A program made the position numbers and the translations under genes. Below are positions 30,117-39,027 of a stretch of DNA of 64,000 bases, piece after piece. Under the pieces are notes generated by a model. That model saw nothing but the letters and a program-made list of their open reading frames with translations, was not told the origin of the DNA and made no database searches. Where the stretch lies: assembly GCF_046105845.1 (NCBI RefSeq), contig NZ_CP151004.1, one strand, 5' to 3'. Within the stretch, counting starts at the first letter, position 1, and every line of letters begins with the position of its first letter. Source of the stretch: Escherichia coli. Lineage in GTDB: Bacteria; Pseudomonadota; Gammaproteobacteria; Enterobacterales; Enterobacteriaceae.

Positions 30117-31700
<1,584 letters not shown>

Positions 31701-31708
31701 CAGAAAAG

Positions 31709-31781
31709 AAAAAGGCCACTCGTGAGTGGCCAAAATTTCATCTCTGAATTCAGGGATGATGATAACAAATGCGCGTCTTTC
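31709..31781 (-). ncRNA. micA: MicA (SraD) small regulatory RNA
   Basis: Minus strand reads gaaagacgcgcatttgttatcatcatccctgaattcagagatgaaattttggccactcacgagtggccttttt, i.e. the MicA sequence with its terminator hairpin. Confidence 0.9.
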
Positions 31782-31849
31782 ATATACTCAGACTCGCCTG
31801 GGAAGAAAGAGTTCAGAAAATTTTTAAAAAAATTACCGGAGGTGGCTAA

Positions 31850-32365
31850 ATGCCGTTGTTAGATAGCTTCACAGTCGATCATACCCGGATGGAAGCGCCT
31901 GCAGTTCGGGTGGCGAAAACAATGAACACCCCGCATGGCGACGCAATCACCGTGTTCGATCTGCGCTTCTGCGTGCCGAACAAAGAAGTGATGCCAGAAA
32001 GAGGGATCCATACCCTGGAGCACCTGTTTGCTGGTTTTATGCGTAACCATCTTAACGGTAATGGCGTAGAGATTATCGATATCTCGCCAATGGGCTGCCG
32101 CACCGGTTTTTATATGAGTTTGATTGGTACGCCAGATGAGCAGCGTGTCGCTGATGCCTGGAAAGCGGCAATGGAAGACGTGCTGAAAGTGCAGGATCAG
32201 AATCAGATCCCGGAACTGAACGTCTACCAGTGTGGCACTTACCAGATGCACTCGTTGCAGGAAGCACAGGATATTGCGCGTAGCATTCTGGAACGTGACG
32301 TGCGCATCAACAGCAACGAAGAACTGGCGCTGCCGAAAGAGAAGTTGCAGGAACTGCACATTTAG
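31850..32365 (+). CDS. luxS: S-ribosylhomocysteine lyase (AI-2 synthase)
   Basis: 171 aa; [10 protein letters not shown] metal-binding motif. Confidence 0.96.
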
Positions 32366-32381
32366 TCAGTTTAAGCAGAAG

Positions 32382-32414
32382 AGGCCGGGCTGGTGAAATC
32401 ACCGCCCGGCTTTT
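32382..32414 (+). terminator. Intrinsic terminator shared by convergent luxS and the HD-kinase gene
   Basis: gccgggc-tggtgaaatcaccg-cccggc hairpin followed by tttt; the minus-strand stop is at 32416..32418. Confidence 0.75.
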
Positions 32415-32415
32415 A

Positions 32416-33528
32416 TTACCTGTCAGTCACCCAATATTCCACACTATGTGCTTCATCAGGTTGAGGAACTTCCAGCCTTGAGGCCATCCGCATCACGACC
32501 GCTTCAGGAACTGCATACTCGCGTCTGGCATTTTGCTGCTTCCATTGCTCCCATGGCACTTCCAGATAAACGATTTTTACTCGTGCGCCGTAAGCCGTAA
32601 ACAGACTGATGAGCTGGCTACGCAGCTGGCGGGTAATGTTCGTCGCATTCCAGATGAACGGCTTTTTCTGGCGTAAAAAAACGCGCGCCTCTTCTTTTGC
32701 CTGTTGCACAATACGCCCGGTGGCGGTTTTGTCGTCCGGGCTGGCATTGATTCGCCGCCGCATATCATCAAGGCTGATAACGTCCATTCCCAGGCACAGT
32801 TCACTGATATAGCGATCTTTGCCCATACCCGGTAAGCCACACAGCAAAATAACCTCAAAAGATTCAGCCTCCCAGGGAACAAAATCAGGAGAACTTTGCT
32901 CATGAGTCAGGTAGTGCCAGCGTGCGGAATCAGACACGAACGGGCGCGCTTTTCCCCAGCATTGTTGCTCATGGCAAAACAGCTCGAACAGATCGATGCG
33001 TTCCAGCATTGATTGCTGGTCCGGGCTTTGGCGACCAAGCAGATCGGCACGAGCAAGCAAAGCGAGCAAACGCGTGTCGATGCGCATTGCAGCTGTGAGC
33101 AGCAAACGCTCCGGTTCCGGACGTTCCAGTAACCATAGCGGTAACCCATGCAGACGCACCAGCGCAACAATTTGCTCGCGTAGCACGAACGGCGTTGGGA
33201 TATCGCGCCATAAAATTTGTCGGGCCGTCAGTTCGCCCCGACGAGCATGGCCAGGCGACTGAATACGTCCGTTTTCCTGCACGGTAGTGCTGCGCTTTTC
33301 AACATCATGCAATAACGCCGCCGCCCATAAAACTTCCTGCTGTTGAGCGGGGAGTTGCTGGAATTCTGGCAGAGTAACGAGGGCGTTAAGTACCATTTCG
33401 GTATGCACGCCGACGTCGCCTTCACCATGATGCTCCGGGTCTTGTGGCGTGTGATGCATCTCCTCAACCCAACTGAAACGCTGGCGTAGCGCCGACCAGC
33501 GTTTATCGTCGGTAAGCTGCCAAATCAT
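32416..33528 (-). CDS. HD-domain phosphoesterase fused to a P-loop polynucleotide-kinase-like domain (putative end-healing enzyme)
   Basis: 370 aa; N-terminal HD signature ([11 protein letters not shown] ... AALLHDVEK ... GHARRG ... RLHGL ... ARADLLGR); C-terminal Walker-A-like [12 protein letters not shown] with Walker-B-like DVISLDD; start overlaps the upstream ligase stop (ATGA). Confidence 0.65.
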
Positions 33529-34232
33529 GATTGTTCTCCATAGGTGAACTCATGGGCCATCCGCGCCCGTTGCCAGTGGCGTTTCCAGTGTACGGTAGTT
33601 TTGACATGATTTTTGCGTACATACTTGAAGACGTTATGCGAAAAGTCAGCGACGGAAAACGCATCACGATTCCGGCTGACAATGCCTTCCAGCGTACAGG
33701 GTTGCCCGGTTTGTGTATCCCAGGGATCGAACGCGCCGCGCGCATTGGTCAGCGCCAGAAAATCACGTTGCCAGCTTTTTTCATCATTCCCCGGCTGCGG
33801 GCCGGAGATTTCGGGAACGCAGGGGAAATCAAACAGAGCGGCGTAAAACTGCACCTCTTCCCAGCTCAGCCACATATCCTGGCAGCGAACGGCAAACAGA
33901 TAAAAATCCTGCTCCAGGGCGCGATATTCAATCGAATGGACGGCATAAAGATTTTCACCAAACAACTCCAGATCGCCGAGATCGTTTTTCAGCAGTTGCC
34001 AGCGTTGGCGAATTTTATAGGTCCATGCCGACTGCGTAGGCGCGGCATGGGAACGGGCAAACACGCCGTAGCGGTTAAGGCAGTTATTTTCACCGTCGAG
34101 TTTTTCTGTGTGCACCAATTGCGTGATGGCCTGTAAATCCTGCCAGTAATCGGTGTTAATACGGTCATCGCTGGTGGTGCCAGGGGAGAAAGGATAATGC
34201 CAGGTTCTCCCGTATTTTCGTTGGGTATTCAT
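33525..34232 (-). CDS. ATP-dependent RNA ligase, Rnl2-like nucleotidyltransferase
   Basis: 235 aa; motif [10 protein letters not shown] (KxDGxN), motif III-like [11 protein letters not shown], motif IV-like EGIVSR, motif V-like FKYVRKNH. Confidence 0.65.
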
Positions 34233-34456
34233 AATAATCCATTATTTTGTGTGTAATAAATGTACGCCCGCGAGGGTGCGAGTTATGGGGTTAAAAGAAA
34301 AATGTGAGTATCACCCGCGAAAGCGAGGGCGAAGGAAAAAGAGAATTAACAACCTGAGCGAATGCTCAGAACCGGTTAATGGTGAATGGAAGAGTTTGGG
34401 GCGGCGAAAAGATACACCGAATGAGTGGATAAAACAACCGTTTGCAAAATGAGCAA

Positions 34457-34480
34457 ATAAAAAGGGAGCCGCAGCTCCCT
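34457..34480 (-). terminator. Intrinsic terminator of emrB
   Basis: Minus strand: gggagctgcggctccc hairpin followed by tttttatttg. Confidence 0.7.
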
Positions 34481-34489
34481 TTGACAACC

Positions 34490-36028
34490 TTAGTGCGCAC
34501 CACCTCCGCCGCCACCTGCGCCAAATGGCGGTTTAGCAAACCACACCAGCCCCAGCAGGACGAGGAATATCCCAGCTGACATCCAGAAGATCTCATTGGC
34601 GGAAATAATCAGCCCCTGATTGGTGATCTGCTGGGCAATCCAGCCTGATGCCTGCTGTTGCGTCATCCCAAGCCCTTCCAGTTGACTATACATCGCCTGG
34701 GCATTCGGGTTGAACGGGTTTACCGACTCAGTCAACTGCGCATGGTGCATCGACTCGCGGTTGGTCCACATGGTAGTGGTTATCGACGTGCCGATAGACC
34801 CCGCCAGCGTTCGCGTAAAGTTAGAGAGGCTCGATGCTGCCGCCAGTCGTTCCGGTGGCAAACCAGACAGCGTAATGGTGGTCAGCGGCATAAAGAAGCA
34901 GGCCACCGCAAAACCCTGGATAAACTGCGGCCAGGCCGACGCGCCAAAATCCATACCTGGTTCAAAGGTATAGGCACGCCAGTAGAAGCAGACGGCATAC
35001 ATAATAAAGCTGAAGGTTACCAGCCGCCGCATATCCAGTTTATGCGCGAAGCGGCCGATAATCGGCGACAGGATCACCGGAATAATTCCTACCGGCGCAG
35101 AGGCCAGACCTGCCCACGTTGCCGTGTAACCGTAGACCTCCTGCAACAACTGCGGCAGCAGAACAATCGCGCCGAAGTAGAGCATATACGCGAGGCTGAT
35201 ACACAAGCAGCCGATGGTGAAGTTGCGCGACTTAAACAACGACAGATCGACTATCGGGTTATCGTCGGTCAGCTCCCAGACAATCAGGAAGCAGATAGCC
35301 ACCACTGCCACCACGGTAAGGATGATAATTTCCTGTGATGAGAACCAGTCCAGCTCTTTACCGCGGTCGAGCATAATCTGCAGGCTACCGATACCAATAA
35401 CCAGCAGTGCCAGCCCCACGGCATCAATCCGCCGCCGTTCGGTGCGGGTTTCACGTCCGCGCAGGGTTTGCAGTGTCATCAACACCACCGCCACGCCAAT
35501 CGGTACGTTGATGAAGAATATCCAGCCCCAGTGGTAATTGTCACTGATATACCCGCCGAGGATCGGGCCGCAAATTGGCGCGACAATCACCGTCATCGAC
35601 CACAACGCCAGCGCGATCGAGCGTTTGGCTGGCGGGTAGTTATTCAGCAATAGACTTTGCGAAAGCGGAATTAACGGCCCGGCGACAATCCCCTGAATCA
35701 CGCGGAAGAAGATCAGCATATTCAGGCTGCTGGAGACACCACACGCCCACGACGCAATAGCAAAGGCGATGGTTGACCAGAGGAACAGTTTCACTTCCCC
35801 GACGCGCTTTGCCAGCCAGCCGGTAAGCGGGATCGAGATGGCATTCGCCACCCCGAAAGAAGTGATTACCCACGTTCCCTGGCTGAGCGATGAGCCCAGA
35901 TTCCCGGCGATAGTGGGGATCGCCACGTTAGCAATGGTGGAGTCCAGCACCTGCATGAATGTCGCCAGTGACAGCGCAATCGTCATAATGACCAGTTGCG
36001 CGCCTTCCAGCGGTTTTTGCTGTTGCAT
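34490..36028 (-). CDS. emrB: Multidrug efflux MFS permease (14-TMS DHA2)
   Basis: Start at MQQQKPLEGAQL; large hydrophobic protein downstream of emrA. Confidence 0.93.
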   Translation of the reverse strand: MQQQKPLEGAQLVIMTIALSLATFMQVLDSTIANVAIPTIAGNLGSSLSQGTWVITSFGVANAISIPLTGWLAKRVGEVKLFLWSTIAFAIASWACGVSSSLNMLIFFRVIQGIVAGPLIPLSQSLLLNNYPPAKRSIALALWSMTVIVAPICGPILGGYISDNYHWGWIFFINVPIGVAVVLMTLQTLRGRETRTERRRIDAVGLALLVIGIGSLQIMLDRGKELDWFSSQEIIILTVVAVVAICFLIVWELTDDNPIVDLSLFKSRNFTIGCLCISLAYMLYFGAIVLLPQLLQEVYGYTATWAGLASAPVGIIPVILSPIIGRFAHKLDMRRLVTFSFIMYAVCFYWRAYTFEPGMDFGASAWPQFIQGFAVACFFMPLTTITLSGLPPERLAAASSLSNFTRTLAGSIGTSITTTMWTNRESMHHAQLTESVNPFNPNAQAMYSQLEGLGMTQQQASGWIAQQITNQGLIISANEIFWMSAGIFLVLLGLVWFAKPPFGAGGGGGGAH

Positions 36029-36044
36029 CACACGCACCTCTGGA

Positions 36045-37217
36045 TTAGCCAGCGTTAGCTTTTACGATATCGTCGATCAGTTTATTGACAGGTGCCAGGC
36101 TGATTTCACGCGCGGTGCTTACCGCTACCGGTGTGGAACGTACTTTATTTGCCAGTACCTGACCGTCACGGTTAGTGGTATTGACGCTCACCAGCGTGGA
36201 TAAACCGATACGCAGCGGGTATTGCTCCAGCTGTTTTTGGTCCAGTTCGATACGAACAGGCAGACGCTGAACGACTTTGATCCAGTTACCAGTCGCATTT
36301 TGCGCCGGAAGCAGCGAGAACGCGCTACCTGTGCCCATATCCAGACCAACCACTTTACCGGTGTATTTCACATCATCGCCGTAAATATCGGTGGTGATGG
36401 TGACCGGCTGACCGATGCGCATATTGGCAATCTGCGTCTCTTTAAAGTTGGCATCCACCCACATATTGGTGGCTGGAACGACCGCCATTAGCGGCGTCGT
36501 TGGGCTAATTTGCGCCCCAGGCTGTACCGCGCGGCGGGAGACATAACCGGTCATCGGACTGACAATACGGGTACGCTCCAGCGCCAGCCAGGCGTTACGT
36601 ACTTCGGTGGCAGCCTGTTGCACGGCAGGCTGATCTTCCAGTTTAGTCCCCAGAATCATCGCCTGATTGGCATTGTATTGTTGAATAGCGACGTCCAGTT
36701 GTGCCTGGGCACTGGTAACGGCGTCGCGGGCGTGTTGCAGCTCTTCGCGACCAATCAGGTTGGCATTGCCCAGCGGCACACGGCGGTTGTAGTCGCTTTG
36801 TGCTTTCGCGAGGGCGATTTTTTGCACCTCAATATTCGCCTGCAACTGTTTGCTGTTAATCATCAGCTGGTGGGTTTGGCGAACGCTGGAAGCCAGTGCA
36901 GTTTTGGCTTTTTCAAACGCCTGGCGAGCATCTGTCGGGTCGAGAGTGACCAGAACATCGCCTTCTTTTACAAAATCGGTGTTATCGGCCCAGACTTTCG
37001 TCACGCTGCCAGACACCTGAGACATAATTTGAATCTGATTCCCTGCCACGTATGCGTCATCGGTTTCTTCGAAATGACGCAGTACCAAAAACCAATAAAT
37101 CCCTATCGCTACGGCAATAATTATAAAGAGCAAGGTGAGAAGGAGGAGCAGACGCTTACGTTTGCCGCTCTTCTTTACCGGTTGCTGCGGGGTTTGAGTC
37201 TCCGCATTTGCGCTCAT
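36045..37217 (-). CDS. emrA: Multidrug efflux membrane fusion protein
   Basis: Start at MSANAETQTPQQ; single TM then coiled-coil/lipoyl-like domains. Confidence 0.93.
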   Translation of the reverse strand: MSANAETQTPQQPVKKSGKRKRLLLLLTLLFIIIAVAIGIYWFLVLRHFEETDDAYVAGNQIQIMSQVSGSVTKVWADNTDFVKEGDVLVTLDPTDARQAFEKAKTALASSVRQTHQLMINSKQLQANIEVQKIALAKAQSDYNRRVPLGNANLIGREELQHARDAVTSAQAQLDVAIQQYNANQAMILGTKLEDQPAVQQAATEVRNAWLALERTRIVSPMTGYVSRRAVQPGAQISPTTPLMAVVPATNMWVDANFKETQIANMRIGQPVTITTDIYGDDVKYTGKVVGLDMGTGSAFSLLPAQNATGNWIKVVQRLPVRIELDQKQLEQYPLRIGLSTLVSVNTTNRDGQVLANKVRSTPVAVSTAREISLAPVNKLIDDIVKANAG

Positions 37218-37272
37218 ATTGTTCTCCACGATCTTCTTAACTCATCGGCTGAGCCGACCTGCTTGCCAAAAA

Positions 37273-37296
37273 GGCCAGCATGTTGCGATGCTGGCC
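37273..37296 (-). promoter_or_regulatory. Perfect hairpin between mprA and emrA (possible attenuator/processing site)
   Basis: ggccagcat-gttgcg-atgctggcc flanked by an A-run and a T-run. Confidence 0.45.
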
Positions 37297-37343
37297 AGTC
37301 ATTTTTTCTTTTATAAATCTGGATTTTTGAGCGAGATGACGCG

Positions 37344-37874
37344 TTAGCTCATCGCTTCGAGAACCACACCGTCTTGTTCCATCTGGTCGAGACGGGAGAG
37401 CAATTTGCGGGTGATTTGCTCGAGCTGATCTTTTTCTGTTGTGCTGAGCGCGGACCAGAGTTGATGCAGGCAGTTATGCTGCGGTGGTAAAACCTCGCGC
37501 AAAAACTCGTGACCTTTTTCCGTTAATTGCAGATGCAGGCAGCGGCGATCGTTATCGCTTTCACGACGTTCAATCCAACCGCGTTTTTCCAGTTCATCGG
37601 CAATACGCGTCGCGTTGGTACGGGATGATCCAAGAGCACAACTCAATTCAGAAGGCTGAATACTGTGGTTTTCCTGAGACTCCAGCGTAATCAACGCCAT
37701 AAACAACGTCTCGTTAATCCCCTGAGCCTTCAGCATTTTATTGCGGTTCTCCAGCAGCTTGCTTTGCATGTGCATGCAAAGACGGGTCAGAAGGATCTCC
37801 TGATAAGGAAAATCTTCGTGGCGGCTGGCGCGAAATTTTAGCATTTGTTCAATGGGCGTAAACGAACTATCCAT
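37344..37874 (-). CDS. mprA: MarR-family repressor of emrAB
   Basis: 176 aa with MarR winged-HTH region. Confidence 0.93.
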
Positions 37875-37964
37875 TTGGGTATGACCTCATTAATTTCAGC
37901 CGATATAGTAACGACAGTGACAAATAAAGTAAATGTATTGTTTTAGAAAAATGATTCTTGTGGG

Positions 37965-38300
37965 TTATATAATCGCCATCACTTTCCAGGCGAGCCCGTA
38001 GGCCAGCGCACTAAGCAGTGTTGGGATGATAATGCTGCGTGTTTTATAGAAACTGGCACCCAGTACCGCGAAGCCGACCAGCGTGGGCACGAAACGGCGT
38101 GTATCGTGCATCACTTCTGGTGCGGTAGAGACAACCAGCAGAGCGCATATCGAGGCGATGCCAATGGTGTCGAGCAATATGCCTATCGCGCCACGTTTGG
38201 TTGGGCGGGTATTACCCACACGCAGGCGCAGCGGCAAATAGCGGAAGCAATAATTCGCCGCGCCAACCAGTAACCCAAGCAGCAGAACCTCATAGCTCAT
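37965..38300 (-). CDS. ygaH: Branched-chain amino acid (valine) exporter small subunit, AzlD-like
   Basis: 111 aa hydrophobic; overlaps ygaZ end. Confidence 0.85.
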
Positions 38301-39027
38301 CGGGCGCTCCTTGCCAGAATGCCTGGATTAACGCAGTGAGGCAGCCACAGACAATGCCTGCCAGAATGGCGACGGGAATAGAAAATAGCGTTACGCCTGC
38401 AAGGGCACCAACTAACGCTGCGGTAACGCAAAGAGATTGTTTGCGCTGGAAAGAGGCGAGCAGGAAACTCATAAAGAGTGCCGGAAGCATAAAACCTAAT
38501 GCTGCTTCAACGGCGGGATATCCTTGCAGCAAGCCGCTGCCGGAGAATGCCCCTATTACCGTACCAAATACCCACGATGACCATGAACTGAAGGCAATGC
38601 CGATCATCCAGTTCTCGCTCCAGCGGCGATTATTGCGTACCAGTTTTGCGGTTGCGGCGGCAAAAACCTCATCCGTCAGGCCAAATGCCCACAGGGCGGT
38701 TTTCGATTTTTGCAGACGCTGAATAATACGGCTACGCAGTGACGGGCCATACAAAACATGGCGAACATCCATTGCCATGACGGTCAGTGCAGCAACCCAC
38801 AAACTACTCCCGGCTGCCAGCATCGCGGTAATGACGAACTGGCTCGCGCCTGCATAAATGATGCAGGAGAAAAAAACGCTTTCGAGAGGAGAGAATCCCA
38901 GACGGGTCGCATTCAGACCGAACGCAAAGGCCACCGGAATATAACTAATAACAATCGGTAAACTGTCTTTGCATCCTTCCATGAAGGTCGCCGAACCAGG
39001 AGCAGGCTGTGGAGTAGGGCTTTCCAT
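38290..39027 (-). CDS. ygaZ: Branched-chain amino acid (valine) exporter large subunit, AzlC-like
   Basis: 245 aa polytopic membrane protein. Confidence 0.85.

Follow-up and report, generated by a model that had tools for sequence, protein, structure and literature searches.

RNA-repair operons and regulated mRNA leaders are the described systems closest to the locus analysed here. The RNA-repair operon rtcBA has RtcR and a sigma54 promoter, and is silent until induced. Rho-dependent attenuation acts in long enterobacterial 5' UTRs, such as the rpoS, mgtA and corA leaders, and further leaders sequester the Shine-Dalgarno (SD) sequence, RNA thermometers of the ROSE and fourU types among them. 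In Runella slithyformis, a ligase ORF lies immediately upstream of the ORF for HD-Pnk, which it overlaps, and HD-Pnk combines an HD phosphoesterase with a 5'-OH polynucleotide kinase (Munir & Shuman 2017, described in PMC6097658).

We analysed a window of 64,000 nt from the Escherichia coli contig NZ_CP151004.1 (GCF_046105845.1). On its minus strand, operon gene 1 is an RNA-ligase-family gene (33525-34232; 235 aa; PF09414, E = 3e-28), which RefSeq names 'RNA ligase family protein'. It is followed by an HD-Pnk-type gene (32416-33528; 370 aa; Pfam AAA_33, E = 7e-33, and HD, E = 0.007), and the two genes overlap by 4 nt at the ligase stop. The HD-Pnk-type protein carries an HD domain and a P-loop polynucleotide kinase, the kinase domain matching Pnkp. 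Judged by domain content and gene order, the pair is a ligase/HD-Pnk cassette for RNA end healing and sealing, as described for Runella (PMC6097658). As there, the ligase ORF overlaps the HD-Pnk ORF and the Pfam domains are the same. Unlike the Runella cluster as that source describes it, the E. coli cassette lacks Tpt1 and the methyltransferase-HIT gene (PMC6097658).

The neighbouring genes were gshA (30144-31700) and luxS (31850-32365) on the plus strand, and emrB (34490-36037) on the minus strand, as are emrR and emrA. Between the emrB stop and the ligase start lies a gap of 257 bp (34233-34489). Scanning positions 31000-38500 with Rfam 15 returned the MicA sRNA (31710-31781, minus strand; RF00078, 83.9 bits), located between gshA and luxS as in K-12, and a chance-level SNORA57 (36482-36567, E = 0.73). 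Within the gap no Rfam 15 covariance model matched at E up to 1, and a search of it for a tRNA-like gene or structure gave none. The PADLOC defence-system libraries had no match for the ligase or the HD-Pnk protein. Using phmmer with the ligase against PDB sequences, no solved ligase structure was matched. The hits were mollusc hemocyanin chains (6r83, E = 3e-9), aligning ligase residues 79-166 with residues 1424-1513, and no single stretch of this match passed alone. Our literature searches found nothing on the emrB|luxS cassette locus or on the UTI89 locus tags beside luxS, and no reports of transcription start, termination or expression for the gap or the cassette.

Of 5426 complete E. coli genomes, 998 carried the gap, each in a single copy. 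In the carrier records shown, RefSeq had no feature annotated under it, including the small ORF discussed below. K-12 lacks the whole segment between the emrB and luxS stop codons; its emrB-luxS interval is 63 bp long, has an unrelated bidirectional terminator and diverges from the window immediately after the emrB stop. The order emrB-gap-ligase-HD-Pnk(-luxS) was found in Klebsiella spallanzanii, Kosakonia, Phytobacter, Superficieibacter, Enterobacter sp. BIGb0383 and the UBA3516 MAG, with gap identities of 70-76% in the closer genera (Klebsiella spallanzanii, Kosakonia, Phytobacter and UBA3516). By this shared gene order, the gap belongs to the ligase/HD-Pnk cassette, which six Enterobacteriaceae genera have at one and the same place, between emrB and luxS. 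The flank identities are consistent with vertical descent of the cassette. Since it sits at the same site across genera, has flanks of the vertical type, and K-12 is without exactly that segment, the cassette looks ancestral and repeatedly lost, not recently inserted. In Nissle 1917 and CFT073, the lineage in which the small ORF has a nonsense allele, the annotation lists the RNA-ligase gene as a pseudogene with a frameshift.

More widely, we retrieved 80 related loci, ranging from Enterobacterales to Bacteroidota; HD-Pnk came after the ligase in every one of them, and in other families the operon stood in unrelated genomic contexts. Between Enterobacterales and Bacteroidota (Chitinophaga, Chryseolinea, Mucilaginibacter, Bacteroides and others), the ligases were 61-68% and the HD-Pnk proteins 50-59% identical. 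Such high identity, unusual for phyla so distant, suggests horizontal transfer or very strong constraint. In Serratia sp. H1w, genes for RtcB and an RF-1-domain (PrfH-like) protein were found directly upstream of ligase/HD-Pnk, the interval between this pair and the ligase being a short gap with a hairpin; four other loci had similar sequence upstream. The adjacency in Serratia hints that the cassette may work with an RtcB/PrfH ribosome or RNA rescue system.

We consider it probable that the gap in the window is the regulatory region of the minus-strand ligase/HD-Pnk RNA-repair operon, made up of a promoter and a conserved untranslated leader. It begins with the intrinsic terminator of emrB (34453-34482, minus strand), a stem-loop at 34482-34461 followed by a U-tract at 34460-34453 (UUUUUAUUU). 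The stem is GC-rich and 9 bp long, folds at -15.7 kcal/mol (z = -2.5) and was flagged by a consensus scan. The terminator was kept in 12/12 orthologs with compensatory stem changes, the variants being GGGAGC/GCUCCC, GGGAUC/GAUCCC and GGGGCC/GGCCUC. As far as sequence can tell, emrB transcription meets a strong and conserved intrinsic terminator here. At the far end of the cassette, a bidirectional terminator hairpin (~32383-32411) is common to luxS on the plus strand and the cassette on the minus strand, with folding energies of -27.6 (plus) and -24.3 kcal/mol (minus), z-scores of -4.3 and -3.7, and UUUUAUU after the hairpin on the plus strand. A preliminary description of this DNA had placed the cassette 3' of emrB on the same strand, with the emrB terminator between them, and had let it end at the luxS terminator. 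Both ends were confirmed, the hairpin and U-tract of emrB lying where that description had put them.

The same description held that the cassette is probably transcribed independently, from a promoter within the 257-bp gap. Comparison between genomes supports a promoter of the cassette's own, through the emrB terminator and a conserved sigma70-like site. In a position-weight-matrix scan of 12 orthologs, we predicted on the minus strand a -35 hexamer TTGTTT (34432-34437) and, 17 bp after it, a -10 hexamer TATCTT (34409-34414). From the position of the -10 alone, transcription would start at 34402-34405. The site ranked first in 10/12 sequences and best or near-best in all. It was the only candidate at a conserved alignment position, with a minimum of 8.55 bits (8.55 in E. 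coli, 11.4 in Superficieibacter); the runner-up, which overlaps the start codon, had a minimum of -2.1 bits. Across orthologs the 17-bp spacing and the critical TA...T positions of the -10 were kept (T1, A2 and T6 invariant in 12/12), and the spacer sequence varied. The corresponding site reads TTGCAA-17-TATTAT in Superficieibacter and TTGCAA-17-TATTCT in Enterobacter sp. BIGb0383. A stricter consensus promoter scan of the window did not flag TTGTTT-17-TATCTT, because the E. coli -35 matches the consensus at 3/6 positions, and this points to a weak promoter in E. coli. Looking by eye only for sigma54 and sigma32-like (CCCCAT / CTTGAA) motifs, we never saw the -35-like and -10-like pieces together in one sequence.

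The existence of gap orthologs in other genera made it possible to test the leader, the promoter and the structures. A start near 34402-34405 would give a leader of ~170 nt, and we infer this length for the operon. Conservation of each element was expressed as the mean identity of the window to 8 non-Escherichia orthologs; as neutral benchmark we took the four-fold degenerate positions in the ligase gene, which were 44-60% (~50%) identical. The leader was a mosaic, with conserved blocks at 77-91% versus linkers at 25-48% identity. From the terminator onwards, a linker of 25% identity leads to the -35 (71%), the spacer (48%) and the -10 (88%). These are followed by a 5' block, CUUCCAUUCAC (34382-34392; 91%), in which UCCAUU (34390-34385) is complementary to the ribosome-binding site (RBS), and by a module of ACCGGU, hairpin P1 and GUUGU (34348-34376; 83%). 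Behind a linker of 32% comes the weakly supported P2, a CCC...GGG hairpin with a variable loop (34312-34331; 57%), and behind a second linker (44%) the GC-rich element P3, CGCACCCUCGCGGGCG (34265-34280; 77%). The ribosome-binding region AAUAAUGGAUUAU and the ligase start codon (34232-34230) close the series (34230-34245; 89%), all elements being on the minus strand. Seven Escherichia alleles had 35 variable sites, none of them in the -35, the -10, the 5' block or the RBS, and one in the P1 module, at its edge.

Neither an nhmmer profile built from the gap nor a covariance model for the 5' module matched the sense strand ahead of the ligase in the Serratia, Xenorhabdus, Providencia, Budviciaceae and Bacteroidota loci. 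When metagenomes were scanned for a P1 module whose loop has 5 nt, 7 sequences came up, all Phytobacter-, Kosakonia- or P. massiliensis-like, and thus no added diversity. Coding on the minus strand was considered and rejected. A 58-aa TTG ORF (34311-34487) and the open frames of the leader had no conserved start, and their frames shifted in UBA3516 and P. massiliensis; such frames stay open because the strand is purine-poor.

The leader contains hairpin P1 (34370-34353, minus strand; UCUGAGC-AUUC-GCUCAGG with a U-rich tail, GUUGUUAAUU / UUGUUAAUU). The consensus scan showed it as terminator-like, with a hairpin of ~-9.6 kcal/mol, a short stem and an interrupted U-tract, and the whole module (34348-34376) folded at -12.7 kcal/mol with z = -3.9. 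In a 10-sequence alignment 98.6% of the cells were paired, versus 14-44% in slid controls. In three of the seven pairs both partners had changed (U·G to G·U, U-A to C-G and A-U to G-C). The independent covariation events are few, since all covariation came from the Superficieibacter lineage alone. The U-rich tail was kept in 12/12 orthologs and the loop was 3-8 nt long. The G·U wobbles in Superficieibacter can pair only on the ligase strand; together with the variation in loop length, they indicate an RNA hairpin of that strand and argue against a DNA operator or a plus-strand function. Most orthologs had P2 in the form C(A/G)CCC...GGGUG; one A-U had become G·U by a change on one side, and P. 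massiliensis had G-C. No covariation was seen in P3, where one Escherichia allele breaks a pair. A search for an antiterminator gave no upstream complement to the P1 arms and, by RNAalifold, no further conserved helix.

RNAalifold also paired UCCAUU of the 5' block (34390-34385) with AAUGGA (34243-34238) at the SD. This helix of 6 bp closes a loop of ~150 nt and was part of the minimum-free-energy fold in 7/12 orthologs, its pairing probability ranging from 0.04 to 0.87. It had no covariation and was broken in P. massiliensis and Enterobacter sp. BIGb0383. In an RNAduplex comparison with shuffled RBS windows, the anti-SD pairing did no better than the controls, z being ~0 in the Escherichia group and mostly -1 to 0 elsewhere. 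We regard occlusion of the SD by the 5' block of the leader as improbable.

In Xenorhabdus and Providencia, the ligase has a conserved leader of its own, ~120 nt upstream of the ligase start, with a shared block, ATGTAATACCAAC(T/A)CTTGA. Just before the RBS, these leaders have a terminator-like hairpin with up to 6 compensatory pairs, and a small hairpin encloses the ligase start codon. RNAalifold proposed analogous helices between the 5' block and the SD independently in both genera. In Providencia, a conserved motif TTGAC(A/T)-N7-TA(G/A)AAT occurs ~100-200 nt upstream of the ligase, and Enterobacillus has TTGACG-N7-TATTAT; with 7 bp between its halves, the motif is unlike a sigma70 promoter.

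The preliminary description also raised the possibility of a small basic protein on the plus strand of the gap, in an ORF at 34249-34452. As it reported, there is an ATG at 34285 with GAGGG (34272-34276) 8 nt upstream, giving a lysine/arginine-rich peptide of 55 aa; counted from a GTG at 34249, the product would have 67 aa. The ORF is intact in the window, one Escherichia allele has an in-frame deletion of 3 nt, and the SD-like GAGGG lies 8 nt before the ATG, but this motif falls within the complement of the conserved minus-strand element P3. We counted start alleles over 60 nt (34265-34324) in the 998 E. coli carriers. The window allele was found in 228 of them, whereas 611 (ST131 type) have TTG in place of the ATG and 123, including Nissle 1917 and CFT073, have a stop at codon 5 (GAA to TAA, 34297 G>T). 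In strain 2017-02-2CC the GTG is mutated and a further stop lies near codon 19. Indels together with stop codons also interrupted the frame in Klebsiella spallanzanii, UBA3516, Kosakonia and Phytobacter, and outside Escherichia ORF-like similarity was seen only in fragments that mirror the nucleotide-conserved blocks. Conservation of the ORF among cassette genomes, which the description had named as a check, thus turned out against a gene. In four Escherichia comparisons, substitutions were distributed 8:7:5 over codon positions 1:2:3, without third-position bias and mostly changing the amino acid. Read from their two translations, the window and Escherichia allele L004 differ by 7 amino-acid changes plus a deletion in 55 codons. 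The ORF was unannotated in every listed RefSeq genome and matched no Pfam or NCBIfam family. Its length is what chance gives: when the 257 nt were shuffled 5000 times with dinucleotides preserved, an ORF of 67 codons or more arose in 7.8% of the shuffles, and an ATG-started one of 55 codons or more in 8.4%; the caveat of the description that the ORF could be chance was right. The plus strand of the leader is 64% purine, the complement of a pyrimidine-rich minus-strand leader, and this explains the K/R/E/G-rich translation. A real protein from either start is hardly tenable. On the comparative evidence, the ORF is a chance by-product of the leader's purine-rich complement and not a gene.

Three further readings compete with an operon promoter followed by an untranslated leader. 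The cassette could lack a promoter and be expressed by read-through from emrRAB, the conserved blocks then serving another purpose. Its place immediately downstream of emrB on the same strand, the weak E. coli -35 and the site left unflagged by the scan tool would suit this, but we judge it very unlikely, given the strong terminator that separates emrB from the cassette and is conserved through compensatory changes, the unrelated contexts of the operon in other families, and the hexamers, which keep their 17-bp spacing and come nearer to consensus in Superficieibacter and Enterobacter sp. BIGb0383. Quite unlikely, too, is a free-standing or leader-derived small RNA, comprising the promoter and the first 55-60 nt to P1, whose CU-rich 5' block would target the RBS of the ligase or other mRNAs. 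Conservation within the gap is indeed highest from the -10 through P1 and its U-rich tail, with a poorly conserved linker directly after P1, yet each genome has a single copy of the module, in every case directly upstream of the ligase. All orthologs have a terminator-like P1, but it is short and its U-tract is interrupted. The Xenorhabdus and Providencia ligase leaders, in which a CU-rich 5' block is likewise combined with a terminator-like hairpin that has compensatory pairs, count in favour of a small RNA, and the lack of an Rfam family match counts against it. That the conserved blocks (AACCGGTT, CTGAGC-N4-GCTCAG and TTCCATT/AATGGAT) are DNA operators for a transcription factor, and not RNA, appears highly improbable to us. 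They are palindromic or inverted-repeat blocks downstream of the promoter, and most are without covariation, as operators could be. Against this stand the loop of P1, which varies from 3 to 8 nt, and the G·U wobbles in its arms, which would be mismatched in DNA or on the opposite strand; moreover, the cassette encodes no regulator.

Within the preferred reading of promoter plus leader, base composition gives a further clue to function. On the ligase strand, the leaders of the 12 orthologs contained 30-36% C and 14-21% G, even in unconserved linkers. The C/G ratio was 1.5-2.2 in 12/12 orthologs versus 1.07 in the ligase coding sequence, and 1.5-2.6 in every 78-nt window, which is the C-rich, G-poor composition of rut-type sites. 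From P1 and this rut-like composition, we tentatively propose that the leader limits expression of the operon by premature termination, a possibility with the balance of probability somewhat against it. The leader would keep basal expression low, and termination would be either intrinsic at P1 (~+32 to +50) or brought about by Rho, acting on the C-rich and G-poor sequence. The weak UGGA Shine-Dalgarno, perhaps partly occluded, may add to the low expression. A stronger version, in which the 5' CU-rich block, P1 and the RBS-complementary segment form a new cis-regulatory RNA that holds the RNA-repair operon off, is unlikely. If it were true, a cis-regulatory leader would release the operon upon RNA damage, or in response to translation or Rho status, and the analogous but sequence-unrelated leaders of Xenorhabdus and Providencia would suggest that ligase/HD-Pnk operons are generally controlled in this way.

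Taken as a whole, the result is a standard promoter and leader prediction, ordinary and without surprise. It provides a map of elements (terminator, promoter, leader blocks and RBS) for a region unannotated in the listed RefSeq records of its 998 carriers, which include UPEC, ST131 and O145 strains, and it removes a false small-protein candidate from annotation. A defined promoter and a conserved leader are concrete handles for finding what switches the operon on.

Set beside the known systems, the leader resembles SD-sequestering leaders in having a conserved pyrimidine-rich 5' block complementary to the RBS. It differs from them and from RNA thermometers in that the helix has 6 bp, lacks covariation and was no better than shuffled controls; no Rfam thermometer family matched in the gap. 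With Rho-attenuated leaders it shares a predicted length of ~170 nt and a C-rich, G-poor sequence in all orthologs, including the unconserved linkers, and this likeness is one of composition only. Like rtcBA, the cassette is an RNA-repair operon, and in Serratia ligase/HD-Pnk comes directly after the RtcB and PrfH-like pair. Unlike rtcBA, it has no adjacent regulator gene, no sigma54-type element was seen by eye, and the best candidate promoter is sigma70-like. The cassette itself is of an already known kind, and its regulatory region is an unannotated, lineage-restricted combination of a predicted promoter and a structured leader.
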